Below the pieces are notes generated by a model. That model made no database searches. It was not told the origin of the DNA and saw only the letters and a program-made list of their open reading frames with translations. Position numbers and translations under genes: made by a program. This document shows, piece by piece, positions 1 through 31,484 of a stretch of 31,484 nucleotides of DNA (positions are counted from its first letter, which is position 1; each line of letters starts with the position of its first letter). Origin of the DNA: a virus; the IMG/VR virus record IMGVR_UViG_3300045988_071496; one strand, written 5' to 3'.

Positions 1-14
1 ACGGCATCGGCTTA

Positions 15-923
15 TCAGCCTATTAGGAAGCACGGGCGCGGGCGCACCCACTCATGAGTGGCCGAATAGTTGTAGCAGCTGCCGTAGCTGTAGACATAGC
101 ACACGGTGGACGCGGAACCGCCCACGACGGAACGCAACCACCAAGTGACGCGCTCGCCCATCAAGCGGCTTGCCGCGCTGTCGAATATGGGGAAGTGGCA
201 ATCCATACCAACAGAATAACCCTTGCTGCCCCAAACAGCGCACCCGTAAACTTCCATTTCGGACAAAGACCAGACCTTGCCGAGGTCTGCCCATCCCCAG
301 CCGCTAGCTTCCGTTAGGTTCCCGGAAGAACCGTAGCGCTGTTCTGACAATGAACGGTAGTTCATAAGCACGTTGCGAAGTGCGGCTGGCAATGATGGCA
401 AATAATCGCTAATCTCCCAGCCGTGAAGCTTGCTGATTAGATAAGGTTCTTTCGTGGTCGCGTTGCCGTTGTTGGTCGCTGTGTCGTTCCACTTGATATA
501 GCTACCGTTTGAAGCCTTAGACCCGCCGACAAGGACGGGTGCCGATGGAACGAACGCGATATGGTGCCCCATTGGCGAATCTGAACACTGGTAATAGGGA
601 TCAATTGCGCCGATCATGTAACGCACGGTCTGCGCCGGAACGTTCGTGCCGTATGTGATTGGAACGTCCATGTAATCGCCGATGCGCAAGCCGGTGAAGT
701 CTCCATCCTGCGCCCGCGATTTCAACCAGGCGTAAATATCGCCGCCAGCAGCGGCAATCTCCGAAGCGAAGGTGGTTGCAAGCGAACGCCCCTTGAATTG
801 CGCAATGCCCTTTTGGCGGTCGAACTCCTCCTGAACGGTCACGGCGCTGGCAGAATCACGCGCCGTTGTGTCTGCGTTCATGTATGTAGTGCCATTTACG
901 TTGAAGCCCTTTAAGTCTGACAT
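15..923 (-). CDS. DGR target protein: distal tail fibre / receptor-binding protein with a C-terminal variable region (C-type-lectin/FGE-like ligand-binding fold likely)
   Basis: The ORF runs 941->15, but the ATG at 921-923 is preceded by AGGGG 8 nt upstream (the TTG at 939-941 is less likely). The stop is TGA at 15-17. The last ~43 codons (RVTWWLRSVVGGSASTVCYVYSYGSCYNYSATHEWVRPRPCFL) are encoded by the VR, which matches the TR at 30814-30943. It is the last gene of the tail module, directly after the BppU-like fibre gene. Confidence 0.8.
   Translation of the reverse strand: MSDLKGFNVNGTTYMNADTTARDSASAVTVQEEFDRQKGIAQFKGRSLATTFASEIAAAGGDIYAWLKSRAQDGDFTGLRIGDYMDVPITYGTNVPAQTVRYMIGAIDPYYQCSDSPMGHHIAFVPSAPVLVGGSKASNGSYIKWNDTATNNGNATTKEPYLISKLHGWEISDYLPSLPAALRNVLMNYRSLSEQRYGSSGNLTEASGWGWADLGKVWSLSEMEVYGCAVWGSKGYSVGMDCHFPIFDSAASRLMGERVTWWLRSVVGGSASTVCYVYSYGSCYNYSATHEWVRPRPCFLIG
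24..154 (-). repeat. DGR variable repeat (VR), 131 bp, at the 3' end of the target gene
   Basis: The VR aligns base-for-base with 30814-30943 at an offset of 30789. There are 10 mismatches, at VR positions 56, 68, 74, 79, 86, 92, 98, 106, 125 and 145. At every one the TR carries T on the plus strand, which is A on the coding (minus) strand. The 3' segment 24-55 is identical to the TR and GC-rich (CACGGGCGCGGGCGC), so it is IMH-like. Confidence 0.85.
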
Positions 924-933
924 TTTCAGCCCC

Positions 934-2025
934 CTAAACAAGTGTGATTATGTTGTCTGCGAAGGTCGCGCCCGGAATCGAAAGCACGCCGTTTTCGACG
1001 GTTGCGCCACGGCTTGCGGGCACATAGCAAATGCCGTCAACAATTATGTAATCGTCGGTCGCATCGCAAAGCGCACGCGCAAGCGTCGCATTGTCCTTCT
1101 TCAATTGGTCAATATCGGCGCTGCTGGCACCGCCGCCAGAACCGCCGCCGCCAGAACCAATGACGTTCAATGCACGCTTCGTTGCGTCCCTCGCATCTTC
1201 GGCGGCGCTGTGCGCTTCAGCCGCCGCAATGTCGGCGTTCGCCTTTGCCGTGTTTGCTGCGCTTGCCGCATCGTTGGCCGCAGTGGCCGCGCTTGTGGCA
1301 TTCTCAATGGCTGTTTCGACGCGTGCCGCTGCGCCGTTTGCAGCAGTTGCCGCGCTGGTGGCGCTTGTGGCTGCGCTGTTGGCCGAAGATGCGGCGCTTG
1401 TTGCGCTGCTTGCCGCGCTGTTCGCCGAAGATGCGGCGCTTGTGGCAGACTGCGCCGCCGTATTCGCTGCGCTCGCAGCGCTGTTGGCCGCCGTTGTGGC
1501 CGCTTCGGAGTTCGTCACGGCTGTTTCGACGCGTGCCGCCGCCGCATTCGCTGCACTTGCAGCGCTATTGGCGCTTGCCGCTGCGCTGTTGGCCGAACTT
1601 ACGGCGGCGTTTCCTCGATTGATTAGGTTGTCTATTGCGTCATCCCAGCTTTGCGCCGGTTGCTGTCCGGCTGTGGCGCATTTCAGAATCTCGATTGCGA
1701 AGCGCTCCGTTGAGTAGCGAACGCCGTTTTTCTCGAATGCGAAATAAGCTTCATCCGTGTAGCCCGGAATGCTGCAAAGCTTGCTTTCGTCAACGGTGAC
1801 GGTTGCGGCGTTGCCCGAAATGGTGGCCGCTGCGCGGTAGTAGTTCGCCTTGTTTGGCAACAGCACTTCAAAGTATCCCGTGAAGCCAGTTAGCGCCGCT
1901 TCCGCGCCGCCGTCGTAGATAAGCGCCCTAAGCGTTGTGCCGCCCTTGTCGCCCTGACCTACACGCACAAGGTTTGTGCCCAAACCGTCTTTGCTCAAAT
2001 CAAGTTCAAGCGTTTGTGTGTTCAT
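934..2025 (-). CDS. tail fibre / baseplate upper protein (BppU-like N-terminal domain) with a central Ala/Ser/Asn/Thr-rich repetitive shaft
   Basis: 363 aa. The N-terminus (MNTQTLELDLSKDGLGTNLVRVGQGDKGGTTLRALIYDGG) resembles the BppU_N domain of siphovirus baseplate proteins. The centre is low-complexity SAASSANSAASSATSAASSAN with a duplicated AAARVETA motif. The stop is TAG at 934-936. Confidence 0.55.
   Translation of the reverse strand: MNTQTLELDLSKDGLGTNLVRVGQGDKGGTTLRALIYDGGAEAALTGFTGYFEVLLPNKANYYRAAATISGNAATVTVDESKLCSIPGYTDEAYFAFEKNGVRYSTERFAIEILKCATAGQQPAQSWDDAIDNLINRGNAAVSSANSAAASANSAASAANAAAARVETAVTNSEAATTAANSAASAANTAAQSATSAASSANSAASSATSAASSANSAATSATSAATAANGAAARVETAIENATSAATAANDAASAANTAKANADIAAAEAHSAAEDARDATKRALNVIGSGGGGSGGGASSADIDQLKKDNATLARALCDATDDYIIVDGICYVPASRGATVENGVLSIPGATFADNIITLV
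1190..1610. repeat. intragenic imperfect tandem repeats (about 42-nt units, and a 210-nt unit present twice) inside the fibre gene
   Basis: GGCTGTTTCGACGCGTGCCGC occurs at 1309-1329 and again at 1519-1539, 210 nt (70 aa) apart. GCGCTGTTGGCCGAAGATGCGGCGCTTGT occurs at about 1371 and about 1413, 42 nt apart. The encoded peptide is an SAASSANSAA-type repeat. Confidence 0.6.
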
Positions 2026-2459
2026 TACGCTTCACCGCCTTGCGTTACCTCTTTGAGCGCGGCAAGCGCCGCTTTGAACGCATCTTCTGGCGTGATCTTG
2101 CGCGCCGCCTTGCGCATGGGCGCTGCGCCTGTCTCCGTTGCCGGCTCTGCTTCGGGGAACATGATTGCTTCCAGCGCGTCGAATACCTCGACAACCGCCG
2201 ACATTCTCACGTCAACGTATGGCGGCAAGACAACTTCAACCCCGTTAACTTCGGGGTTGGGCTGCTTGACCTCGATTGCCGGCACAACCTCGCGCGAACC
2301 GTCGTTGTATTCGGCGATAATCACAAGCCCCATGGCTTCAGCGTCAAGCAAGCTTTGCTGCGAATAGTCGGTTATGTATCCCTCTACGTTTGCCGCCGCA
2401 TCGTGCAGCAGGTAGGCAACAATGTGCCGTGTTGCTTCTGAAACCGCGTTATTGTCCAT
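2025..2459 (-). CDS. hypothetical tail-associated protein
   Basis: The ATG at 2457-2459 is preceded by AGGAGAAG. An alternative ATG at 2477 overlaps the Tal stop. The gene sits between Tal and the fibre genes, and I recognise no motif. Confidence 0.45.
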   Translation of the reverse strand: MDNNAVSEATRHIVAYLLHDAAANVEGYITDYSQQSLLDAEAMGLVIIAEYNDGSREVVPAIEVKQPNPEVNGVEVVLPPYVDVRMSAVVEVFDALEAIMFPEAEPATETGAAPMRKAARKITPEDAFKAALAALKEVTQGGEA

Positions 2460-2470
2460 AGTCTCTTCTC

Positions 2471-4381
2471 CTACCATGATTGACTGCCAATGCAGATGCC
2501 GTTGATGAATGCAAGGCGGTAGCGGTAGTGCAACCCCACGTGCCCTTCTCCGTCTAGTTCATAGTAGCTGCACCGCTGCGTGCCCGTGTAACCTATCGTG
2601 CCGGCTTGCGAAGTGTTTTCAGCCGTGTAAAGCTTCGGTGCCCTCAACCCAAGGTAGGTTGCGCCGTTGCACGCCTGAAGGTATCCGCCTTTGTTTCCGT
2701 CCGTGTAGGCCGGGATTGACACAAGTTCTATTGTTTCGTGGTTGTTGTAGTAGAACTGTATTTCTCCGCCTGAAATACGCGCCTTATAGCCCGTGTCCGT
2801 TCCGCTCGTAAGCGTGCCGGTTGCGCTAATGTTGTTTGCCGTCATGTAGTTTGTTCTAAGCGTTCCGTTGGTTAAATCCCATGTGTTGCGCCCGTTCTGG
2901 TCGGTCAATAGGCCGGCGCGGATTCGGTCTGCTCTCATGGTTCCGGCGTTGATGCAATCGGCGGTGACGCTTGCGCCGGTAATGAACGTTTTCCAGTTCC
3001 ATTGCCCCGAACTGGTAAGGCTCGAAGCAAGACGGATGCCGCGCCCGGAAATGTTCACCGCCCACATGCTCGAAGTTGTGCGAAGCGGCAAGCCCGTTTC
3101 GGGGTTAAGCGGAACGTTGCTGTAGATCGTGCCAAGTTCAAAGGTTTCAACTTTGTATGTTCCAACGGCGTTGAACTGATCGTTTAGCGCGTCTTGAAGC
3201 TGAATGAGCCAGCTAACGGACGTGCCGGCCACCGCGTCATAGGTTGCCGCCGCGCGGCTGCTCGCCTTTAGCGTCTGGCTCACGCTCTGCCACATATCGG
3301 CCATGCTGTCGGTGAGGTTGCCGAAAGTCACGCTTGCGTCACCTGTGAGCAGGTCGCGTTCAATCTGCGACACGCGCCCGGTTAGGCGCACGCCGGCTTC
3401 GCTGAAGCCCTTATCAATGATTGCCACCTTGTCGCCGATGCCCACACCTTCCCAGCTTCGCCCGAAAGCGTACAGATCAACAACGCTTGCCGTGTAGCTG
3501 ACTTTAGGTTGCGAAACCTCGGCAAGGTATGCTTTCGTTTCCGCCAGCAGTTGCGCGGCATCCTCGCATTGCTCGTTAACGTAGCTTGTGCAAGCGGGAA
3601 GAACGGTGCTGCCCGTTCCGGGGTGCCCCCAAATCTTCGTTGCCTCCGTATCCTCGACATAGGCTTTATTGCCGTTGATTTTCTCGAAGGTCAAGCGCCT
3701 ACCGTATGCGCCAGAATCCGTTTCAACGCCCTTGCCGTAGCCGTAAACGCGCGTTTTCGGGTTGTCGCTCGAAACGGTGCGCGTAATGCTCTTAATGTCC
3801 TTCGTCCACGTGAAGCGCTTCGGGCTTGACTGGTTGCCGCGCGTCTTTCGCACGCCAACTTTGCGGGTCGTAACCTTGTAACCGTCGGTTATAACTTGGG
3901 TTTCAAGTTCGCCGCCCCACTTTTCCAGTATTTCCGCCACGGATTCGCGCACGCTCTGGTGGTACAGCACGGCGCTTGCGCTGGCCGTAACGTCGCACGT
4001 GCCAACCGTCCAACGCGTGCCCGAAAGCACGCTTGAAAGCGCCGTTGCAACCTGACCAGTTGGCCGCTTGTCATCCGTCCAATCATCCCAAAGTTCGGCG
4101 ATTGAGTTAACGCCGGTGAAGGTGGTTTCTAGCGTCCCATCCTCGCCGTGCGTGCGGTTCACGTCATCAACAATGTGTTCATGGCTCACGCCCTGCGCGT
4201 CAGCCCACACAATGTAATCACCCTTGTTAACGTCATCGCTGCACGTCACCTTGATTTCGTCGGTGCAGTCCAGCGCTTCGCTGTGCGTCGCGCTCGTTAC
4301 GTGCAGCCGGCCAAGGTTCACGCCGAAGCGCGAAAAGCGGGTGAAGCCGATACGTCTTATTACAGCCATCGTTCCCACCAT
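2471..4381 (-). CDS. tail-associated protein Tal (siphovirus minor structural / tail tip 'endopeptidase tail' family)
   Basis: 636 aa, immediately downstream of Dit as in the canonical siphovirus TMP-Dit-Tal order. The N-terminus (MAVIRRIGF...) is typical of this family. The start is ambiguous between 4381 and 4369. Confidence 0.6.
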   Translation of the reverse strand: MVGTMAVIRRIGFTRFSRFGVNLGRLHVTSATHSEALDCTDEIKVTCSDDVNKGDYIVWADAQGVSHEHIVDDVNRTHGEDGTLETTFTGVNSIAELWDDWTDDKRPTGQVATALSSVLSGTRWTVGTCDVTASASAVLYHQSVRESVAEILEKWGGELETQVITDGYKVTTRKVGVRKTRGNQSSPKRFTWTKDIKSITRTVSSDNPKTRVYGYGKGVETDSGAYGRRLTFEKINGNKAYVEDTEATKIWGHPGTGSTVLPACTSYVNEQCEDAAQLLAETKAYLAEVSQPKVSYTASVVDLYAFGRSWEGVGIGDKVAIIDKGFSEAGVRLTGRVSQIERDLLTGDASVTFGNLTDSMADMWQSVSQTLKASSRAAATYDAVAGTSVSWLIQLQDALNDQFNAVGTYKVETFELGTIYSNVPLNPETGLPLRTTSSMWAVNISGRGIRLASSLTSSGQWNWKTFITGASVTADCINAGTMRADRIRAGLLTDQNGRNTWDLTNGTLRTNYMTANNISATGTLTSGTDTGYKARISGGEIQFYYNNHETIELVSIPAYTDGNKGGYLQACNGATYLGLRAPKLYTAENTSQAGTIGYTGTQRCSYYELDGEGHVGLHYRYRLAFINGICIGSQSW

Positions 4382-5106
4382 TCCAGCACGGCGGTGCCGC
4401 TGCTCAATTGCAATTTCGTTCGCCCGTCAATGGTGAAGAAGTCGGAATCAAGCGTTACAGCGGCGGTGCTTCCGTTGACGGTGGCGTGTTCGGTCGCCAT
4501 GTCAACGCGCACGGTGCTTGCGCTTGTGACGCTTGATGCCAGCTTCACTTGCTCGCCAGTATCGACGTTGCGCAAATACCATGCCGCGCTTGATGCCGGC
4601 TTAGCCGTGATTTGAAGGTGCGCCGGCCTGTCACCGCCGGCGTTAATCGTGAATGCTCCCGCGCTCACCTCAACGCGGCGCTTGCGCCCGTAATAAAACG
4701 GGTCGCAAACGTGGAAGGTTATTGTTGTGAACGGGCACTTGTCGGTGATCTCCCCAAGGTCTGTTTCTCCGCTCACGATTGCAAGCAGAAAGCGCGTTGG
4801 GTCATCGGGAAGGAAAAGCGGCGCGGGTTCGTCAGTGCATAGCATCTTCGCCAGCGCGTGGCGAACCGTTGCCGCATCGCGTCTTTCGTCGCTTCTTAGC
4901 CACACATCGACGGGCAAATCATACCCGCCGAAGTGTGCGGCCTTGAATAGTTCGCCGTCGCGCCCGCCGATGCTCTCAAGCGTGACGTTCACGGGCGGCA
5001 TAATAGGGCGGCTTACCTTGCAGGAAACAAAGGCGCTTAGATCGTGCCCGTTGAACAACACGCGGTCGGTTTGCGCCCTAAGCTGTTTACGTTGCAACGC
5101 TAACAC
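4360..5106 (-). CDS. distal tail protein Dit (siphovirus tail component)
   Basis: 248 aa. It follows the tape measure directly, overlapping its end, and precedes Tal. The size and position fit the Dit family. Confidence 0.6.
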   Translation of the reverse strand: MLALQRKQLRAQTDRVLFNGHDLSAFVSCKVSRPIMPPVNVTLESIGGRDGELFKAAHFGGYDLPVDVWLRSDERRDAATVRHALAKMLCTDEPAPLFLPDDPTRFLLAIVSGETDLGEITDKCPFTTITFHVCDPFYYGRKRRVEVSAGAFTINAGGDRPAHLQITAKPASSAAWYLRNVDTGEQVKLASSVTSASTVRVDMATEHATVNGSTAAVTLDSDFFTIDGRTKLQLSSGTAVLEWWERWL

Positions 5107-7642
5107 CCCTTTGCTTCAGTTTGCTTGCGATACCCAAGCCGATTTGCTGGCCTGTCTGGTACGCGTCCGTGTTGCCCGATACCGTGGCGTTAACCTCTAC
5201 GGCCACGGTGATTTGCTGGCCGGGTTGGCCACCGTTGAACGCGTTGTTAACGGCGCGTTCTATGAAGTCCCAAAGCTGCTTTTCGGGTGCCACGTACTCG
5301 CCGCCGCGCTCGCCAACGCCGATGATGCTTGCTTTGTCGAAGTATCCGCCGCGTGCGTACCAATCAACGCTGATGCTCGGCAGCTTCACAACGCCGCCAA
5401 TGTCGTTCCATTGCACGTTGAAGTGCGGCATCTTGATTTTTGGCAACGAAATCTTGATGCCGCCAAAGGCGTTCATGATCTTGTTGGGAATGTCCTTAAT
5501 CCAGTTCCAAGCGTTTTCAATTGGGTTCTTCATGAAGTCGCGCACGCCGTTGAAAACGCCGTTGACCTTAGCGCCAAGGCCGGGAAAGCCAAGCTTGTTT
5601 CCTATGGCATCGGCCACGCGCACGGCGTTAGACTGCGCCGCGTCCATCTTCTGGCTGATATTGTCGCGGATGGTTCCGAACGCGCTTGCCGCTTCGCTTC
5701 TGGCCGTTGACCAATCGCCCGAAAGCGCGGCTTGCAACGCGCTTCCCGCGTGGCTTCCCGCTTCCTTCGCCGTGTTCAGGTCGTTTTGCACGGTGGATTT
5801 CACCGCGCCAAAGGCTGTTTGGGTGTTCGTTTTAAGGTTGTTCCATTTCTCGCTTACCCAATCGGCGGCACCCTTTGCCTTTTCTGAAATGGTGCTTTTC
5901 ACGTTCTCCCAAGCGTTGCTTGCATCGGATTTGAAACCTTCCCACTTGCTAGAAACGTCGTTCTTGAAGTTCTCAACGCCGGTTGTAACGTTGTTCCAAG
6001 TGTCGCTGAAGAAGTCGCCGGCACCGCCGAAGAAGTCGCAAACGCCCTGCCATTTCTCCGAAATCCAGCCGGTGAAGTCAGACCACATTTGCTTGCCCGT
6101 CTCGGTCTGCGTGAAGAACCATGTTAGACCGGCAACCGCCGCGCTGACAGCAGCCACGCCAAGCCCTATTGGGTTGGCCGTGATAAGCCCGGTTAGGCTC
6201 TTCCAGCCCCCGCCAAGCCCGCCGAATTTCCCGCTTAGCCCGTCGGCCTTGCCGCCAAGGTCGGTGAAGCCGCCGGCAACGGTCTTGATAACGCCGCCGA
6301 TTTCCGAAGCTGATTGCATCAGCTTTCCCGCCGCCGTGGTAACGCCGCCGAAAGCAAGCGCACCTAGCGCAAGGTTCTTGACCAGCTCTTGCTGTTCGGG
6401 CGAAAGAGATTTGAACCAGTCGGAAGCGGATTTCAGCGCCGGGGTGAGCTTTCCTAGAATCTCGGTGCCGATCTCCGTGACCATCTGCTTAACCGGCAAC
6501 GCCGCTTCGCCCATTTCGCGCATGGACGTTTCAAGTTCGTTTTGCGCGTCGCGGCTCGCCAAAAGGTCTTTGTTGGTTTCCTGAAACTGCTTGCCGGCAT
6601 CGCCGTAAACTCCGCTAAGCGCTTCGGTTACAAGCGTTGCGCGTTCCTGCTCGGTCTTGCAAGCGGCCAAGGCTTCGTTGAAGGCATCTTCTTTGGTCAT
6701 GCCCTCGCCAATGGCCTTGTTGAACGCCGCCTGTGCGCCGGCGTTTCCGCTAAGCGCTTGGCTCCATTGCTCGGCGCTGGCCGTTGACCAGTTGAGCGCA
6801 TCGGCAAAGCTTCCCGTTACAGCGCCGGTGTGCGCCGTTTCCTGCGCCGTTTCCGCTAGATTCTCCAAGGGCAGGGCATCGCCGAAGGTCGCATAGGCAC
6901 CGGCTGCAATGTCCGTCCACTTCTGCAGTTCCTCTTCGTTCTGCGTAAGCCTGATTAGGTTCTGGCTGGCTTCGGTGGCTGTGTCGCCCTCGCCCAAGAT
7001 GCGGTAGAAGGACGCGTAAACGCTTGATGCCTGTTCTACCGTTCCGCCGGCTTGGGTGAAAGCGGTTTCAAGCTGCGCGTTTTGCTGTATGGCTTCCTCT
7101 TGGCTCTCGGCAAGCGCGGTCAGGCCAGTTGCCGCCGCCGTGATGCCGCCGGAAATGGCAAGCCCGCCGCGCTCAACGCCCTTGCCGGCCTTTTCCAGCT
7201 TGTCTGCGTTGTCCTCGATGGTCTGGCCGAACTGGTAAAGCGAAGTTTTGGACGCTTCGGCTTCGCGCTTCGTGTCTGCAAGTTCCTTGCCGTAGCTTTC
7301 AAGCTGGTTTTCGCATTGCAGGATTGCGCGTTTCAAGCTGTCGTATTGCCGTTCTTCCTCTGAAGTCAGCTTCGCGCCGCTCTGCTTCTTAGATTCAAGC
7401 TGTGAAAGCGCCTGTTTGTACGCCGCAAGCTTCTGTTCGGTTTCGTCGTAGGCGCTGTTTAGCGCCTTTACCTTCTGCGCCAGAAGGTCGGTGTTTCCGG
7501 GGTTGAACTTTAGGGCTTTGTTGATCTCTCGCAAGTCTGCTTGCGTGTTCTTCGATTGCTTGGAAACCTCGCGCAAAGCGCCCTGAAGTTCCGTTGTGTC
7601 GCCGCCGAACTTGATAACAAGCCCCTTATAGCTTACAGCCAT
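5087..7642 (-). CDS. tail tape measure protein
   Basis: 851 aa, with long Ala/Gly-rich coiled-coil and helical stretches and a central hydrophobic segment. It lies after the G/T chaperone ORFs and the N-terminus is MAVSYKGLVIKFGGDTTELQ. Confidence 0.85.
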   Translation of the reverse strand: MAVSYKGLVIKFGGDTTELQGALREVSKQSKNTQADLREINKALKFNPGNTDLLAQKVKALNSAYDETEQKLAAYKQALSQLESKKQSGAKLTSEEERQYDSLKRAILQCENQLESYGKELADTKREAEASKTSLYQFGQTIEDNADKLEKAGKGVERGGLAISGGITAAATGLTALAESQEEAIQQNAQLETAFTQAGGTVEQASSVYASFYRILGEGDTATEASQNLIRLTQNEEELQKWTDIAAGAYATFGDALPLENLAETAQETAHTGAVTGSFADALNWSTASAEQWSQALSGNAGAQAAFNKAIGEGMTKEDAFNEALAACKTEQERATLVTEALSGVYGDAGKQFQETNKDLLASRDAQNELETSMREMGEAALPVKQMVTEIGTEILGKLTPALKSASDWFKSLSPEQQELVKNLALGALAFGGVTTAAGKLMQSASEIGGVIKTVAGGFTDLGGKADGLSGKFGGLGGGWKSLTGLITANPIGLGVAAVSAAVAGLTWFFTQTETGKQMWSDFTGWISEKWQGVCDFFGGAGDFFSDTWNNVTTGVENFKNDVSSKWEGFKSDASNAWENVKSTISEKAKGAADWVSEKWNNLKTNTQTAFGAVKSTVQNDLNTAKEAGSHAGSALQAALSGDWSTARSEAASAFGTIRDNISQKMDAAQSNAVRVADAIGNKLGFPGLGAKVNGVFNGVRDFMKNPIENAWNWIKDIPNKIMNAFGGIKISLPKIKMPHFNVQWNDIGGVVKLPSISVDWYARGGYFDKASIIGVGERGGEYVAPEKQLWDFIERAVNNAFNGGQPGQQITVAVEVNATVSGNTDAYQTGQQIGLGIASKLKQRGVSVAT

Positions 7643-7732
7643 GCCGTCACCTCTTTTCGTTTGTCAAAGTGCATGAGCGTTTCAAGCACCGCGCCCGTTA
7701 ATCAGGTGCGGTGTTGTGAAGCGTTCACACGT

Positions 7733-8011
7733 CTAGCCCCAAAAGGCCGCTTCGGCCTTTCGCGCCTTTTCGTCATCCTCGTAGTTCGCCGCCGCGTCGG
7801 CATAGAACGCGTGAATTTCCAGCAGGTCTTTAACTTGCCTGTAGCTAAGCCGCTGCAAATCCGCCACGGTCAAGCCGCATTGCTGGCAGTCGTACAGATA
7901 ACGCGCGTCGCAAGCGTCGCTAAGATTGCTTGGAAGCGGCGGCGCGGGGTTTTTTGGCGGGCGCGGCTTCCACTCCATCGGGCGTTGAAGGAAAAAAGTT
8001 ATCTTCAACAA
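7733..8011 (-). CDS. tail assembly chaperone frameshift extension (gpT-like), probably expressed as a G-T fusion
   Basis: The ORF lies in the +1 frame relative to the G ORF. Its only start is a TTG with no RBS. The overlap contains GCC AAA AAA CCC CGC (A6 followed by C4). Confidence 0.4.
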   Translation of the reverse strand: MLKITFFLQRPMEWKPRPPKNPAPPLPSNLSDACDARYLYDCQQCGLTVADLQRLSYRQVKDLLEIHAFYADAAANYEDDEKARKAEAAFWG

Positions 8012-18539: not shown

Positions 18540-19745
18540 TCATTGCAACACCTCTTCGATGGTTGCCGTGGCTTCCATAGCCGCTTGCTCGAAGATGCTT
18601 GCGGCGTATGCGTCGCGCCCCGGCAGCACGTGCGCGTAGATGCGAAGCGTGGTTGCTTCGTCGGCGTGGCCTAAGCGCTCCGAAACGGTTTTCAGGTCAA
18701 CGCCGTGCGTCAGAAGCCACGTTGCGTGCGTGTGGCGCAGATCGTGGAACGTGAAGCCCTCTGGCATTTCCACTTTGCCCGCAAACGTGGTGAACGCACG
18801 CGACACCGAACGCGGGCGCATATAGCCGCCGTCCATCGTGACAATGGGCGCGTTGGCTGGCAGGTGTCCCAAGAACTGCGCCCGCAAGGCCAGAAACGCA
18901 TCAATGGTTTCTATGTCGCTGTCGGTTATGCCGACGTTGCGGCACTTGCGGCCTTTTGTCACGTCGCGACGCCAAGGCTTCTTGCCCTTTTCCTCGATTA
19001 CGGTACCGCCAACGTGAATGTACTTGGCCGCGCCCCTGAACACCTCGCCCGGACGCAAGGCGCACACCTCGCTAACGCGCATACCGGTTCTAAGCGCAAG
19101 CCAAGCCGAAAACGCGTTGCACGCCTTGCGCCATGTGCGCTTGTTTAAAACCTCTGGTTTAAGCAGCGGTTTTAACTGTTCGTCCAGCTTGCGAAAATCG
19201 CCGATGTTGAGCGCTTGGGCTTCGTGTCTTTCAAGCACCGGCTTGTCAACGTCGTACATCGGGTTGAACTCGCAAATGCCAGCTTTCACGAAGAACTTAT
19301 AGGCACCGCGTATGAAGTCATGGACGTTGCGCACGCTGTTTTGGCATAGCCCTTGCCCCTTCTCTTCTTTCGGCATCAATAGCCGATCTTCAAAGCGGAT
19401 GAAGTCAAGCGCGTGCATATCGCGTGCGTTGGCCGTCGGCAGGAACTTGCGAACGTAGCCGGTGAACGTCTTGTAGCTTCGTATGCTGTTCGGGCTTGCG
19501 CCCTTGCGAAGCCGCATCGCCGTGTAATCGTCCAAAATGTCAGCAAGCAATGCGCTTCTTACGCGCCCGTCGGCGGTGAGGTTGGCAGCCCAGATGTTCG
19601 CCAACTCCTGCGCTTCTTCTTCGGTTTTCGCGTTCGGAAACTCTTTGTATGGCTGAATAGGCTTACCGGCGGGCGTGCGCCCAAGATAAGGGCGCACGAA
19701 CCACACTTCACGCGATGCGCTCCATTTGACCTTGCACGGCTTCAT
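18540..19745 (-). CDS. int: tyrosine recombinase / phage integrase
   Basis: 401 aa. The C-terminus has R...HDLRHTHATWLL...LGHADEATTLRIYAHV (the R-H-R-Y catalytic signature). An N-terminal arm-binding-like domain is present. Confidence 0.85.
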   Translation of the reverse strand: MKPCKVKWSASREVWFVRPYLGRTPAGKPIQPYKEFPNAKTEEEAQELANIWAANLTADGRVRSALLADILDDYTAMRLRKGASPNSIRSYKTFTGYVRKFLPTANARDMHALDFIRFEDRLLMPKEEKGQGLCQNSVRNVHDFIRGAYKFFVKAGICEFNPMYDVDKPVLERHEAQALNIGDFRKLDEQLKPLLKPEVLNKRTWRKACNAFSAWLALRTGMRVSEVCALRPGEVFRGAAKYIHVGGTVIEEKGKKPWRRDVTKGRKCRNVGITDSDIETIDAFLALRAQFLGHLPANAPIVTMDGGYMRPRSVSRAFTTFAGKVEMPEGFTFHDLRHTHATWLLTHGVDLKTVSERLGHADEATTLRIYAHVLPGRDAYAASIFEQAAMEATATIEEVLQ

Positions 19746-25777: not shown

Positions 25778-27322
25778 ATGGTCAAACGTAGAGCGGCTAT
25801 ATATGCCCGCTTTTCGTCACACAACCAACGGTCGGAAAGCATCGAAATACAGGTTGACGCTGGCACACGCTACATAGCTGAAAACGGCCTTGAACTGGTG
25901 AAGGTATATGCGGACTATGCCAAGACAGGGCGCAACACTGACCGGCGCGAATACAAACACATGATGAACGATGCCCGGTTGGGCTTGTTTGACTATGTGG
26001 TGATCTACAAGGTGCCGCGCATCATGCGCAACCGCGACGAAATGGCGCTAACGCGCATCATGCTGCGCAAAGCCGGTGTTGAAATACTCTACGCCGGTGA
26101 AGAAATCGCCAGCGGTTCGGCTGGCGTGCTGCAATTGGGAATGCTCGAAGTGCTGGCCGAATGGGAAAGCGCCATAGACAGCGAACGCATCATTGACGGC
26201 ATACAGAAGAACGCACAAAGGTGTATGGCGAATGGCCGCACGCTCTACGGTTGGGACATTGTAGAAGGGCGCTACGTGGTCAATGACCGCGAAGCGGCGG
26301 TGCTGCACCGCATGAAGAACCTGTTGTTTAGCGGCTCGACGGTCGCGGACATTGTGCGGGCTGTCGCCAATGAGCGAAGCCGCAACGGAAAGCCCTTCAA
26401 CCATGACCGCACGAAGAAGCTACTGCTGCGCCCGCAGAACGGCGGCACATACAGTTACGCCGGTCACGTGGTAGAAGACGGAATGCCCGCAATCTGGCCG
26501 AAGATCGAACAAGATATGATTATCAGCATGTTAGGCACACCGCGCCCGCGCCGTCGCGTAGACCACACCGCAGAATGGCCGCTAACCGGCAAGCTGTATT
26601 GCGCCGAATGCGGCAACACCCTTGCCGGAACATCCGGCACCAGCAAGGGCGGCACGGTCTATTCGTACTACAAGTGCAAGAAGTGCAAGCGCACGTTCCG
26701 GCGCGACATTTTGGAAGATGCAATAGTTGATATGACCATATGCGCCCTAGAGCGCCCCGACGTGCGCAAGCGCATTGCCGACGGCATGGCAACCTATGAA
26801 GCTACCATGGAAGATGCGCCGCTTGAAAGCGAACGGTTGCGCAAAGAGATAAAGCGGATTGATGCCGCGTTTGAACGAATCTGGCAAGCCATCGAAGACG
26901 GCATAGCGCCACCGGGCGGCAAAGAACGAATTGAGGATTTGAAAGCCCGCAAAGATGCGTTGGAAACCGAATACCAGATAGCCAAGGCCAATGAAAACAT
27001 TGAACCGGGCTTTTCGGAATTGATGGACTGGCTAGACAACGTAGCCGAAGAAATGAACCCGCAAGAAATCCTAACAATGTTTGTGCGGGCGGTGCAGATC
27101 GACAAAACCGAAGTGCGGTTGTACTTCGCTTTTGACTATTACGGCGACAATTTCACGCCGCCAAAAAAAGACGAACACCCGGTAGATGGGTGTTCGTCTA
27201 ATTCTCTTATGGTGGAGCCTAATATAACTAAGGCGAACACGGTTATATGTCTTGAAACCTGTTATTTGCAGATTAACCGCAATTGGTTTGCGGTTATAGG
27301 CAACCTGCAAAATACCAGATAG
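25778..27322 (+). CDS. large serine recombinase (phage integrase type)
   Basis: 514 aa. The N-terminal resolvase domain has the catalytic Ser in AIYARFSS. A large C-terminal domain carries a zinc ribbon (CAECG...CKKCKR) and a coiled coil. An AAGGTGA RBS is present. Confidence 0.85.
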   Translation: MVKRRAAIYARFSSHNQRSESIEIQVDAGTRYIAENGLELVKVYADYAKTGRNTDRREYKHMMNDARLGLFDYVVIYKVPRIMRNRDEMALTRIMLRKAGVEILYAGEEIASGSAGVLQLGMLEVLAEWESAIDSERIIDGIQKNAQRCMANGRTLYGWDIVEGRYVVNDREAAVLHRMKNLLFSGSTVADIVRAVANERSRNGKPFNHDRTKKLLLRPQNGGTYSYAGHVVEDGMPAIWPKIEQDMIISMLGTPRPRRRVDHTAEWPLTGKLYCAECGNTLAGTSGTSKGGTVYSYYKCKKCKRTFRRDILEDAIVDMTICALERPDVRKRIADGMATYEATMEDAPLESERLRKEIKRIDAAFERIWQAIEDGIAPPGGKERIEDLKARKDALETEYQIAKANENIEPGFSELMDWLDNVAEEMNPQEILTMFVRAVQIDKTEVRLYFAFDYYGDNFTPPKKDEHPVDGCSSNSLMVEPNITKANTVICLETCYLQINRNWFAVIGNLQNTR

Positions 27323-28678: not shown

Positions 28679-28991
28679 CGACTAGATAAGGCTTTAGTGC
28701 CTTGATTGCTTCCATGTATTTCTTCGCGGTTCCGTTTCCGCCAAGAGCCGTATACGCGTCGAAGATGCGCAAAAGTTCGTCGTATCGGGCAATAGTCAGC
28801 TTCTTGCCCTTGACCACGTAATCTTCGTAAGCGTCGAAGATCATTTGCCGCGCCATGGCCTTTTCGATCTCGACGCGGGCTTTCTCGAACTTTGACAAGT
28901 GCGTGACCTTGGCAATGAGGAAACCTATAACGCCGCTGGCGATGATGCCGACGATTGACGTTATTAGCTGCTGCCCAGCCGCGCTAATCAT
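28671..28991 (-). CDS. holin-like protein (single N-terminal TM helix, BhlA/UviB-like)
   Basis: 106 aa with an N-terminal TM helix (ITSIVGIIASGVIGFLIA) followed by an amphipathic helical domain, in the lysis cassette. Confidence 0.4.
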   Translation of the reverse strand: MISAAGQQLITSIVGIIASGVIGFLIAKVTHLSKFEKARVEIEKAMARQMIFDAYEDYVVKGKKLTIARYDELLRIFDAYTALGGNGTAKKYMEAIKALKPYLVVD

Positions 28992-29428
28992 TAGTCAACC
29001 ACCTGCCAAAGCGTTTCAGTGCCAGCAACGCCCGGTTCCCACACGTTGTTGTCAACAAGCGATTGCCACTTGCTGCCGCCATGGGTCACCACCGCGCCGG
29101 TTGGGTATCCGTTCGCAGCGTCCGGCTGCTCCCATGCGGGCACGTCTGTTGCGTCCGGGCTGTCGGCTGCGGCAAGGTTACGCGCCCAAAGGCTCGGCGC
29201 TGCCGCCGGTGCCCAGTCGGCTTGCGACGTGTGCGGCTGCAAGCACACATAGAGCGTGCCGCCATATTCCACGCGCTCGCCAGCGGTGTAATAGTGGCCG
29301 TCGCCCGTCCACTGGTCGTATAGCGCCGGGGCAATCTCTGCCACGTCATCGGACAACGACGGCGCTTGCGTCTTGTAAATTGCGATGATGCCGCGCAACG
29401 CGGCTTCCTCTTCGGCTGTGAATGCCAT
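28991..29428 (-). CDS. protein with two CBM5/12-like (chitin-binding-type) carbohydrate-binding repeats
   Basis: The ATG at 29426-29428 has an AGGGGG RBS. Two repeats fit the aromatic W..G..Y..G..V.Y.G..Y.C...H.....W pattern: YDQWTGDGHYYTAGERVEYGGTLYVCLQPHTSQADWAP and GYPTGAVVTHGGSKWQSLVDNNVW. Confidence 0.4.
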   Translation of the reverse strand: MAFTAEEEAALRGIIAIYKTQAPSLSDDVAEIAPALYDQWTGDGHYYTAGERVEYGGTLYVCLQPHTSQADWAPAAAPSLWARNLAAADSPDATDVPAWEQPDAANGYPTGAVVTHGGSKWQSLVDNNVWEPGVAGTETLWQVVD

Positions 29429-29498
29429 GTTTTGCCCCCTAACAATAGGAAAGCCCGCGCAATGGCGGGCTTGGCTTGCTGTTGGTGTGTTTGTGCTG

Positions 29499-30695
29499 CT
29501 ATCCGAAAAGCCGGGTAAACAGCGCATCCATGTTTGCGACGGTTCGCCGCGCGTCAAGGCGCATCATCGAACCGCGCCAAGATTGGTAGCTTTGCAACGC
29601 CTGATCGCGCGTCATCTCGCCGCGCTCCACAAACGCCGCAAGCTTTTTCAACTTGCGCCGCTCCCGCGTTACGGCGGCACGGCACGGGCGCACAATGACT
29701 TTGCCAGTCTCGCCATAGTTAAACCTCTTCTTTAGGAACGTGAAGCCGCGTGTCAGCTTCACGATGCGGGTTTTCTTCTCATTAACGACAATGCCCAGCT
29801 TTGCGCACTCGCTCCGAATGTCGGCAAGCACGCCGCGCAAGTCCGCCTTGTCAATGGCGATGCAATAAAGGTCATCCATGTAGCGCCCACTTGCCAGCAC
29901 GCAGGGCGTGCGCAGCAACATATGGTCTACGGGGCTTGGAAGCGCAACGGCTAGTATCTGGTTCGGCTCGCTGCCAAGCCCAAGGCCACGGGTGCCGTGT
30001 GAATCAACTTGCGCGTACATAAGCGCCTTGATTCGCTCGTCATCTAGCGCCCTGTCAATTAGCCGCTTGGTGGCCGCGTGGTCGATGTTCCCGAAGAAGT
30101 TAGAGAAATCGACAAGCAGCACGTAACCTTCTGCGCCATGCTTCCGATAGTGCCTTGCAAGCTGCTGTTTCAGGCGCGATACGGCAAAGTCCGTGCCGCG
30201 CCCCTTGATGTTCGCGGTGCAGCCCGGCGCAAGCGTCGGCCAGATCGCCGGTGCCAGCGCGTAGCGGTTAAGCGCCTTATGCACAACGCGTTCAGAGTAA
30301 TGCACGGACGTGATATGCCGAAGCTTGCCGCGCTCGAATATGTCAAACTCAACGAAGCCGCGCCGAATGTCGTTGCCCGCCATCAAGTCGGCGTGGGTCT
30401 TTAGGACGTTCGGAAGAATGTTTGCAAGGTAGCGTTGAACCGCCGATTTCCAACCCACGCCATGGGCGCAAGCCTGTGCGCATCTGTAAAGGTTGTCAAC
30501 GTCTGCAACCTGTTCAATGGTACATCGTTCAAGGCGCTTTTCTCGGTTCGCCGCGCGTTTCGCATCGCGGCGGGCACGTCGTGCAGCCCGCCGCTCTTCG
30601 GATTTCACGGGCACCCCGCACGGCTTGCAATCGGCATTCCGTAGCCGCTTAGGCACCAACAATGAAACGCAAGCAAATGCCGAAACCTGCGCCAT
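29499..30695 (-). CDS. DGR reverse transcriptase
   Basis: 398 aa with RT motifs including the catalytic GRYMDDLYC (YMDD box) and upstream fingers/palm motifs (LLVDFSNFFGNIDH, TRGLGLGSEPNQ). It lies 118 nt downstream of the template repeat on the same strand. Confidence 0.9.
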   Translation of the reverse strand: MAQVSAFACVSLLVPKRLRNADCKPCGVPVKSEERRAARRARRDAKRAANREKRLERCTIEQVADVDNLYRCAQACAHGVGWKSAVQRYLANILPNVLKTHADLMAGNDIRRGFVEFDIFERGKLRHITSVHYSERVVHKALNRYALAPAIWPTLAPGCTANIKGRGTDFAVSRLKQQLARHYRKHGAEGYVLLVDFSNFFGNIDHAATKRLIDRALDDERIKALMYAQVDSHGTRGLGLGSEPNQILAVALPSPVDHMLLRTPCVLASGRYMDDLYCIAIDKADLRGVLADIRSECAKLGIVVNEKKTRIVKLTRGFTFLKKRFNYGETGKVIVRPCRAAVTRERRKLKKLAAFVERGEMTRDQALQSYQSWRGSMMRLDARRTVANMDALFTRLFG

Positions 30696-30813
30696 GCAAG
30701 CAGCGGTCTGCGGTACCCACGGGGTGCATATTTACGGCCATATGGCCGAACGTCGCACCTTCCTTCCTCTTCTGCACGGATTGCGGACGCATCCGCAATG
30801 GCTGGCATTTTCA

Positions 30814-30943
30814 AGGAATCACGGGCGCGGGCGCACCCACTCATTAGTGGCCGAATTGTTGTTGCAGTTGCCGTTGCTGTTGACATTGCACACGTTGGAC
30901 GCGGAACCGCCCATGACGGAACGCAACCACCAATTGACGCGCT
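30814..30943 (-). repeat. DGR template repeat (TR), noncoding, between avd and the RT gene
   Basis: This 130-bp segment matches the VR at 24-154 (offset 30789). It carries T on the plus strand, which is A on the minus strand, at all 10 positions where the VR differs. In the target frame it would encode an Asn(AAY)-rich peptide. Confidence 0.85.
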
Positions 30944-30968
30944 AAACAAGATACGACGTATGGTTATT

Positions 30969-31376
30969 CTACCCTTGCCCAATCAATTTCACACCCTTTC
31001 TTGCGCCCTTGATTAGCTTTATCGCCGTTTCAACATCTTCTGCCATCCGCTCGCACCTGCTCACCTTCACAATGCCAAGTTCGATAAGGCATTGCAGGTC
31101 TTGCATGATCTGCTCGCAGTCCGCAACGGCAAGCGTCATGTAATGCCGCCGCTGGCAAACGTTGTGTTCGGTATTGGGGTAGAACGCGTTTGCGGTCACA
31201 AGGTTGTGAACGATGCTTCGCGCTGTTTCCGCCATCGGGACGGCAAACACGAATCGGTATGACTTCGGCAACGCCGAAGAAGTAACAAGCGCCGTGATCT
31301 CTTTTCTGATTCTAACGGCGGTTGTGAAATACTCGTAATTGCTCAAATCGCGATAGCGGGCTAGAACTGTACTCAA
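30969..31376 (-). CDS. avd: accessory variability determinant (Avd, four-helix-bundle DGR accessory protein)
   Basis: 135 aa, basic and helical. It sits in the canonical position between the target gene and the TR. The start is TTG at 31374-31376 with an AAGAAAGG RBS. Confidence 0.6.
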   Translation of the reverse strand: MSTVLARYRDLSNYEYFTTAVRIRKEITALVTSSALPKSYRFVFAVPMAETARSIVHNLVTANAFYPNTEHNVCQRRHYMTLAVADCEQIMQDLQCLIELGIVKVSRCERMAEDVETAIKLIKGARKGVKLIGQG

Positions 31377-31397: not shown

Positions 31398-31418
31398 GCG
31401 CCCGCGCAAGGCGGGCGC
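31398..31418 (-). promoter_or_regulatory. GC-rich hairpin downstream of the VR / target-gene stop (DGR target-recognition-type hairpin)
   Basis: GCGCCCGC (31398-31405), loop GCAAG, GCGGGCGC (31411-31418). On the minus strand it lies about 26 nt 3' of the target stop codon (15-17, equivalent to 31444-31446) and is not followed by a U-tract. Confidence 0.5.
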
Positions 31419-31429
31419 GGTTAAAGCGC

Positions 31430-31484
31430 ACGGCATCGGCTTATCAGCCTATTAGGAAGCACGGGCGCGGGCGCACCCACTCAT
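31430..31484. repeat. exact 55-bp duplicate of bases 1-55 (circular overlap of the genome representation)
   Basis: 31430-31484 is identical to 1-55 (ACGGCATCGGCTTATCAGCCTATTAGGAAGCACGGGCGCGGGCGCACCCACTCAT). The identity runs exactly to the window edge and lies inside the 3' end of the target gene. Confidence 0.8.

Follow-up and report, generated by a model that had tools for sequence, protein, structure and literature searches.

The stretch analysed here, IMG/VR virus record IMGVR_UViG_3300045988_071496 (31,484 nt; hereafter the window, to whose full length all coordinates and strands refer), carries at positions 30814–30943 what we read with high confidence as the template repeat (TR) of a canonical diversity-generating retroelement (DGR), carried by a temperate, siphovirus-like 31.4-kb phage from gut Coriobacteriia. 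The diversified target is a protein with a DUF6273 domain, likely involved in receptor binding. This DGR represents ordinary, well-understood biology, given that DUF6273 targets, DGRs of Coriobacteriia prophages and the logic of AAY codons (AAC or AAT) have all been published. The window adds to this well-described class a complete, evidently active example carried by a Coriobacteriia prophage and leaves the understanding of DGRs unchanged.

The core of the evidence is a 130-nt direct repeat pair, 25–154 and 30814–30943, with 92% identity. The two copies differ at 11 positions, and all 11 are adenines in the second copy. Because every changed base is an adenine in 30814–30943, this copy is the template and 25–154 is the variable repeat (VR). 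Ten of the differences are substitutions within the 124-nt core of the TR, which contains 25 adenines; the probability that ten out of ten would fall on adenines by chance is ~1e-7. The VR lies in frame with the minus-strand open reading frame (ORF) 923..15. Read in the frame of the target, the TR encodes ...SASNVCNVNSNGNCNNNSATNEW... (in a longer reading ...RVNWWLRSVMGGSASNVCNVNSNGNCNNNSATNEWVRPRP) and the VR encodes ...SASTVCYVYSYGSCYNYSATHEW... (in a longer reading ...RVTWWLRSVVGGSASTVCYVYSYGSCYNYSATHEWVRPRP). Codon base 1 accounts for seven of the core substitutions (five AAY to TAY, one AAT to CAT and one ATG to GTG), and codon base 2 for the other three (AAT to ACT, AAC to ACC and AAC to AGC). 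A search of both strands with an adenine-masked TR returned no second VR, leaving a single VR in the genome. Positions 1–55 of the window are identical to 31430–31484, and because of this 55-nt exact terminal overlap we treat the contig as circularly assembled, with a length of 31,429 bp; the VR portion at 25–55 is present twice in the window for the same reason.

The substitutions are limited to codon bases 1 and 2 because the adenines of the TR are placed only there: 13 of the 25 core adenines occupy base 1, 12 occupy base 2 and none occupies base 3. Base 3 holds 21% of the adenines in 11 further genes of the phage, a background against which 0/25 has a P of about 0.003. The placement of the TR adenines is thus non-random. 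AAY codons make up 10 of the 40 TR codons compared to 4.8% in the genome (P about 1.6e-5), and account for ten of the 14 adenine-bearing codons, the others being ATG, AGC, ACT and GAG. The mutable part of the TR holds 24 adenines, none of them at a third position and none stop-capable, and enumeration over the TR up to residue 297 confirms that 0/14 adenine-bearing codons can turn into a stop. Each AAY site can yield any of 15 amino acids. The theoretical protein repertoire amounts to 1.1e14 (15^10 x 3 x 4 x 4 x 4), with 5.8e11 coming from the AAY sites alone, and the 24 adenines specify 2.8e14 sequences at the DNA level. Both the rationale for AAY codons and the occurrence of this codon bias across DGRs have been described previously (PMC7826257, PMC6328139).

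A first reading made from the letters of the window without database searches (the original prediction) had described an Asn-codon-rich template, a VR in frame with the ORF ending at 15–17, ten changes confined to codon bases 1 and 2, and a design that never creates stop codons, and had proposed that diversity be counted from the TR adenines. The ten AAY codons, the two peptides, the verified frame, the position and type of each listed change and the enumerations above all agree with it. Its total of ten is correct for the A-to-N substitutions, as is its statement that none lies at a third base; the 130-nt repeat, however, holds 11 differences, and the one overlooked, which we read as a boundary difference, sits at base 3.

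Could the codon pattern be a mere by-product of adenine positions in a moderately GC-rich gene, and not a selected design? A mutable TR that lacks third-base adenines fully explains the restriction to bases 1 and 2, the low third-base background renders the significance of the 0/25 count modest, and ATA and AAG codons are tolerated in the TRs of relatives. Nonetheless, we regard this explanation as very unlikely. AAY codons exceed the genomic frequency sixfold, their enrichment is kept at the same positions in 8/8 Coriobacteriia cassettes, and none of the 14 adenine-bearing codons in the TR of the window is stop-capable. The TR of Roseburia phage Shimadzu is also AAC-rich, with its substitutions likewise at codon bases 1 and 2, and the same bias recurs across DGRs as cited above.

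The eleventh difference pairs an adenine at TR position 30819 with a cytosine at VR position 30, so that the TR has TGA where the VR has TGC (Cys). It sits 3' of a 13-nt run composed only of G and C, GCGCCCGCGCCCG, shared by both repeats. The TGA/TGC pair is fixed in 8/8 Coriobacteriia cassettes and in Roseburia phage Shimadzu, that is, in nine cassettes including one from a Firmicutes phage, and the C-terminal end of the target, ...RPRPCFLIG, is unchanged in 23 aligned homologues. Because the difference is fixed and the protein end invariant, position 30/30819 is evidently not transferred, and on these sequence comparisons we read it as a fixed boundary mark between the initiation of mutagenic homing (IMH) element and its TR counterpart, IMH*, at the 3' limit of homing. 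We considered and rejected a third-base mutagenesis event at this site, since nine cassettes share the difference unchanged and a stop would otherwise be encoded. In all loci compared, the G/C-only run is followed by the fixed C/A difference and divergent flanks, an arrangement expected of an IMH. The TR is bracketed by stop codons in the target frame, TAG (30946–30944) and TGA (30821–30819); the TAG at its 5' edge stands where the VR has GAG, in the window and in five relatives (L001–L005).

Comparison with relatives indicates that the VR has diversified in nature. Target homologues with 92–96% identity occur in metagenomes and in a genome of Adlercreutzia caecimuris, the named genome with the closest match (P0013, 92%), and homologues with 55–65% identity (about 60%) occur in Collinsella and Olsenella genomes. 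In one locus from another metagenome (L001), the TR and its flanks are identical to those of the window, and the VR differs at 14 sites, 14/14 of which are TR-adenine positions. The remaining target gene of L001 differs at 6/769 nt, and the stretch 3' of the VR through Avd, TR and RT-2 RNA into the reverse transcriptase (RT) gene has 3 differences in about 940 nt. Over eight cassettes, 94/95 core TR/VR mismatches lie at TR adenines, all at codon base 1 or 2. Lineage-specific non-adenine variants of the TR (for example GGTTGCG to GGCTTCG, and GTG to ATA) recur in the cognate VR, which shows that information passes from TR to VR. Among 16 metagenomic proteins with 92–96% identity, variation is found at 14/14 adenine-bearing codons. 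The ten AAY sites each show 6–8 residue types (2.3–2.9 bits), and their 160 observations lack K, E, Q, M and W as well as stops, which is what an unchanging third base predicts. Outside the VR, nearly all variable columns are biallelic lineage markers.

These data speak directly to a simpler view, in which the repeats are an ordinary duplication or gene-conversion tract diverging by random mutation. The existence of a 130-nt repeat is all that favors it. The strand- and base-specific asymmetry of the differences, 11/11 in the window and 94/95 in the eight loci at adenines of one copy only, already refutes it; moreover, the TR is invariant and the VR hypervariable between near-identical genomes, and genes for an RT and Avd and an RT-associated RNA adjoin the repeat. 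We give it practically no credence. A second view holds that the cassette is a recent relic, its VR differences historical and diversification ended. The window shows a single VR state, and decay does occur in the lineage, as seen in a close relative with a split RT (282 + 87 aa) and no called Avd. The window RT, on the other hand, is a continuous ORF with a YMDD motif that aligns to a solved RT structure over residues 56–383, the Avd gene, RT-2 RNA, G/C-only run and TR are all intact, and a different VR is found in the genome whose TR is identical. We therefore judge a relic to be quite unlikely, and the DGR of the window is apparently active.

Read along the minus strand and past the junction of the circle, the cassette has the order target with VR, hairpin, GC-rich hairpin, Avd, TR, RT-2 RNA and RT (Table 1). 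The GC-rich hairpin is not a canonical intrinsic terminator because it lacks a T-run. The Avd-like protein matches Pfam 23S_rRNA_IVP with an E of 6.6e-4, below the curated cut-off, and has no match among PDB sequences or in NCBIfam; the position of its gene between target and TR is kept in all relatives. At E<=0.001, the RT matches a single PDB chain, 8ub7_A (entered there as 'Reverse transcriptase', with an E of 2.2e-21 over residues 56–383), which we take to be the DGR RT from Bordetella phage BPP-1 (bRT). Against NCBIfam, the RT yields only matches far below cut-offs.

Table 1. Coordinates of the DGR cassette and of other features in the window.
Feature	Position	Strand	Remarks
Hairpin GGCT-GATA-AGCC	9..20	-	Immediately 3' of VR homology; contains target stop codon
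Target gene, 302 aa	15..923	-	ATG at 923; ORF extends to TTG at 941; stop TGA 17..15
Variable repeat (VR)	25..154	-	Encodes residues about 257-300 of 302-aa target
G/C-only run, 13 nt	33..45	-	VR 3' end, IMH-like; same run in TR at 30822-30834
BppU-like baseplate gene	ORF 934-2025	-	Directly upstream of target gene
Tyrosine integrase (Phage_integrase)	18540-19745	-	In one 31-kb phage with the serine recombinase
Large serine recombinase (Resolvase + Zn_ribbon_recom)	25778-27322	+	In one 31-kb phage with the tyrosine integrase
CBM_5_12 carbohydrate-binding protein	28991-29557	-	Between RT and holin; position kept in all relatives
Reverse transcriptase ORF, 398 aa longest	29499..30695	-	RVT_1; phrog_1423 E 4.5e-64; YMDD motif
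RT-2 structured RNA, Rfam RF03077	30591..30800	-	Fills TR-RT spacer
Template repeat (TR)	30814..30943	-	Core 30820-30943, 124 nt
Avd-like accessory gene, 135 aa	30969..31376	-	phrog_3206 'Avd protein of DGR', E 6.8e-7
GC-rich 8-bp hairpin	31398..31418	-	Between target gene and avd

By analogy with BPP-1, the RT-Avd complex would bind an RNA that comprises the TR and, next to it, the RT-2 spacer. This RNA would be reverse-transcribed with random nucleotides placed opposite template adenines, and the resulting cDNA would take the place of the VR in the 3' end of the target gene. How far transfer reaches on the 3' side would be set by the G/C-only run together with the following sequence that differs between VR and TR. 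These biochemical steps, cDNA synthesis, adenine misincorporation and retrohoming, are inferred from the BPP-1 system. The small hairpin 3' of the VR, whose stem is kept and whose loop varies among relatives, is a weak candidate for the counterpart of the post-VR hairpin of BPP-1. We make no claim that it acts as a functional cruciform, as it is weak and the whole 100-nt region folds at a z of only -1.8.

Several observations weigh against the assignment of an active, canonical DGR or limit its reach. The rule of no stops and no third-base adenines is a strong tendency in the clade without being absolute, two relatives having ATA and one having AAG in the TR. A signature of DGR RTs is [ILV]GxxxSQ, and the window RT has LGSEPNQ where the Bordetella (IGSLTSQ) and Shimadzu (LGSETSQ) enzymes have SQ; this motif is common to the window and all seven Coriobacteriia relatives, with the Gln kept and the Ser replaced by Asn. 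The post-VR hairpin measures only 4 bp, the pLDDT of the structural model described below is only 72–85 across the VR, and activity is read from a comparison of metagenomic relatives.

The spacer between TR and RT is filled by the RT-2 motif, matched over the full model (positions 1–222) at 87.8 bits compared to a gathering score of 40. RT-2 was also found in eight related loci (seven relatives and Roseburia phage Shimadzu at 5391–5614) with 86.8–144.9 bits, such that it lies between TR and RT in nine cassettes from two phyla. Judged by this placement, RT-2 is presumed to form the spacer part of the DGR RNA, and the DGRs of this clade appear to use it as their spacer RNA. Weinberg et al. tied only RT-10 to a DGR and speculated on a DGR origin of other RT motifs (PMC5737381). 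In the literature searched, we found no paper that links RT-2 to DGRs, and the present cassettes tie this orphan Rfam motif to them. More speculatively, RT-2 may serve as spacer RNA and priming scaffold in a distinct clade of DUF6273-target DGRs in gut phages of Firmicutes and Actinomycetota, with the TR-only TGA versus VR-only TGC as a mark of directionality. We put this forward as a tentative proposal that has somewhat less than an even chance of being right. The TR-only TGA could serve as a fail-safe, in that over-extended homing would truncate the protein. If the clade reading is true, the window offers a compact, well-populated model for the recruitment of RT and Avd by DGR RNAs unlike that of BPP-1.

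RT-2 also bears on gene annotation. Of the long RT ORF (ATG at 30695), the initial 29 codons fall within the RT-2 RNA, and the gene calls of four relatives measure 369 aa. Because of this overlap and these calls, the RT probably starts at the GTG at 30608 (369 aa), and naive RT ORF calls are probably over-extended (30608–30695). A 125-aa ORF spanning the TR (30605–30982, minus strand) was set aside as spurious, as it has no family match and its frame differs from that of the VR. Two public genomes carry 45–46-aa 'DUF6273' gene calls on the TR (L008, 4944–5084; L009, 4889–5026), and ORFs called on the TR very likely result from misannotation of the repeat. The practical value of the cassette for annotation lies in these corrections and in pointing to the likely receptor-binding protein of the phage. 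In the prophage of a cultured A. caecimuris strain (contig L002, 4959–6853), the RT is split into ORFs of 282 aa and 87 aa and no Avd is called on the expected strand; this DGR may be decaying, although TR and VR there still show 16 differences, of which 15 lie at adenines.

We next consider the diversified protein. The target ORF (308 aa from its TTG) matches Pfam DUF6273 (PF19789) over residues 158–301 with 38.2 bits (cut-off 23.5), and PF19789 is carried by 119/120 listed homologues, P0104 having no precomputed domain. DUF6273 is the only Pfam family found, and the protein falls outside the Mtd, FGE-sulfatase and DUF1566 families. phmmer and profile searches against PDB sequences gave only spurious cytochrome oxidase matches (E 0.1 or worse), and there is neither an NCBIfam match nor a PHROGs family. 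An AlphaFold2 model computed from 61 homologues has a predicted local distance difference test score (pLDDT) of 81.8 and a predicted template modelling score (pTM) of 0.81. In this model, the VR-bearing domain adopts a C-type-lectin-like (CLec-like) predicted fold, the last four predicted strands of which span residues 260–267, 273–277, 283–287 and 298–301. Foldseek returned only the IgA peptidase from the PDB, the closest solved structure being the N-terminal DUF6273 domain of this gut-bacterial enzyme (PMC12402451), and many DUF6273 proteins of gut-virome phages from BFVD; the FGE-like domains of OvoA and EgtB are listed with the structural comparison of the target.

In the predicted fold, randomisation affects residues of the C-terminal strands and hairpin in the CLec-like DUF6273 domain. 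Variable positions 276, 278, 280, 282, 284 and 286 alternate along the predicted beta-hairpin formed by strands 273–277 and 283–287, and Asp, Arg, Gly and Tyr interchange at variable sites in natural variants. The i/i+2 spacing, together with an interchange that buried sites would not tolerate, indirectly favors the view that the variable residues may be exposed and share one face. The original prediction had placed the diversified residues on the ligand-binding face of a CLec-like fold at the extreme C-terminus of the fiber and had likened the codon design to that of Mtd. The modeled fold agrees with the CLec-like assignment, and the likeness to Mtd stands for the mechanism. At the level of sequence, however, the target is not a member of the Mtd family, and it is not the end of a long fiber but a separate 302-aa DUF6273 protein encoded after a BppU-like protein.

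Because it is encoded directly after the BppU-like baseplate protein, in the slot of a receptor-binding protein, the target is most likely the receptor-binding protein of the phage, and its diversification most likely serves host-range adaptation. Natural fusions of BppU_N and DUF6273 occur in prophages of Coriobacteriaceae type (P0085, 510 aa; P0100, 470 aa), which suggests a physical connection of the BppU-like protein with the DGR target within the baseplate. Alternatively, the protein might act as an accessory adhesin with a ligand such as mucus, host glycans or immunoglobulin, a role put forward for other gut-phage DGR targets. The closest solved structure belongs to an IgA peptidase, and DUF6273 tentaclins have been proposed to bind bacterial receptors or intestinal and immune cells (PMC10743442). 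Set against this are the position of the gene right after Dit, Tal and the BppU-like protein, the BppU_N-DUF6273 fusions, the fact that the target holds the only VR in the genome, and the annotation of the Roseburia phage Shimadzu homologue as a tail fiber protein. An accessory role is accordingly unlikely.

Comparison with the prototype BPP-1 highlights both shared and distinct elements. The two systems share the order target with 3' VR, Avd, TR, structured spacer RNA and RT, as well as adenine-specific TR/VR differences and an AAY-rich TR without stop-capable codons. In both, the 3' end of the VR carries a G/C-only run, beyond which the VR and TR sequences differ, and a C-type-lectin-type variable domain, predicted in the window phage, closes a tail protein at its C-terminus. 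In contrast to BPP-1, the window target is a 302-aa DUF6273 protein with no sequence similarity to Mtd and without the N-terminal domains of Mtd, the spacer RNA is RT-2 instead of RT-10, the RT reads LGSEPNQ instead of IGSLTSQ, the post-VR hairpin is shorter (4 bp), and the host is a Gram-positive actinobacterium.

Closer counterparts are found among gut phages. In Roseburia phage Shimadzu, the tail-fiber, Avd and RT genes follow the same order, the target is 38% identical, RT-2 lies between TR and RT at 144.9 bits, and the TGA (TR)/TGC (VR) boundary difference is the same, whereas its RT has SQ where the window RT has NQ. Together with the nd4/nd12 tentaclin phages and the Faecalibacterium prophages Lelie, CP11, Roos and Pioen, Shimadzu belongs to the DUF6273-target DGRs of gut phages with Firmicutes hosts, several of which have two targets or Ig-domain extensions; the window phage, in contrast, is a Coriobacteriia siphophage with a single short target. 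DUF6273 DGR targets with the VR at the C-terminal end of a CLec-like domain have been published (PMC10743442, PMC11792537). Within the same bacterial class, DGRs of Eggerthella lenta prophages (clades 3, 4, 7 and 10) comprise an mtd-like gene, avd, a 130-bp TR and RT, and a change of the VR was shown experimentally for prophage DSM2243phi4 (PMC8778435); by this published description, they share gene order and TR length with the window cassette. TvpA (2Y3C) and TaqVP (5VF4) also have a C-terminal VR of about 40 residues with variable positions mostly encoded by AAY. The window target shares about 11–13% sequence identity with them and has no Pfam FGE-sulfatase match, and they are bacterial surface or lipoprotein-type proteins and not phage tail proteins.

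The circle itself is a temperate siphovirus-type phage or prophage of gut Coriobacteriia with hosts of Adlercreutzia/Eggerthellaceae type. Its gene content includes terminase, portal, S78 protease, major capsid protein, tape measure, Dit and Tal, and the genes around the cassette follow the order tape measure, Dit, Tal, BppU-like, target, DGR, CBM, holin and endolysin, the lysis side of the circle encoding the CBM_5_12 protein, the holin and an ELLD/CW_7/SH3 endolysin. This tail-DGR-lysis synteny is kept across all relatives compared (metagenomic, A. caecimuris, Collinsella and Olsenella). A blastn search of window positions 1–8000 against the GenBank phage collection gave no match, a tRNA scan of the phage found none, and the BppU-like protein had no match in NCBIfam. 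The BppU-like gene contains degenerate tandem repeats at 1247–1606, consisting of a 47-nt family (D1) and a 150-nt pair (D2) at 210-nt spacing, which probably encode a repetitive stalk.
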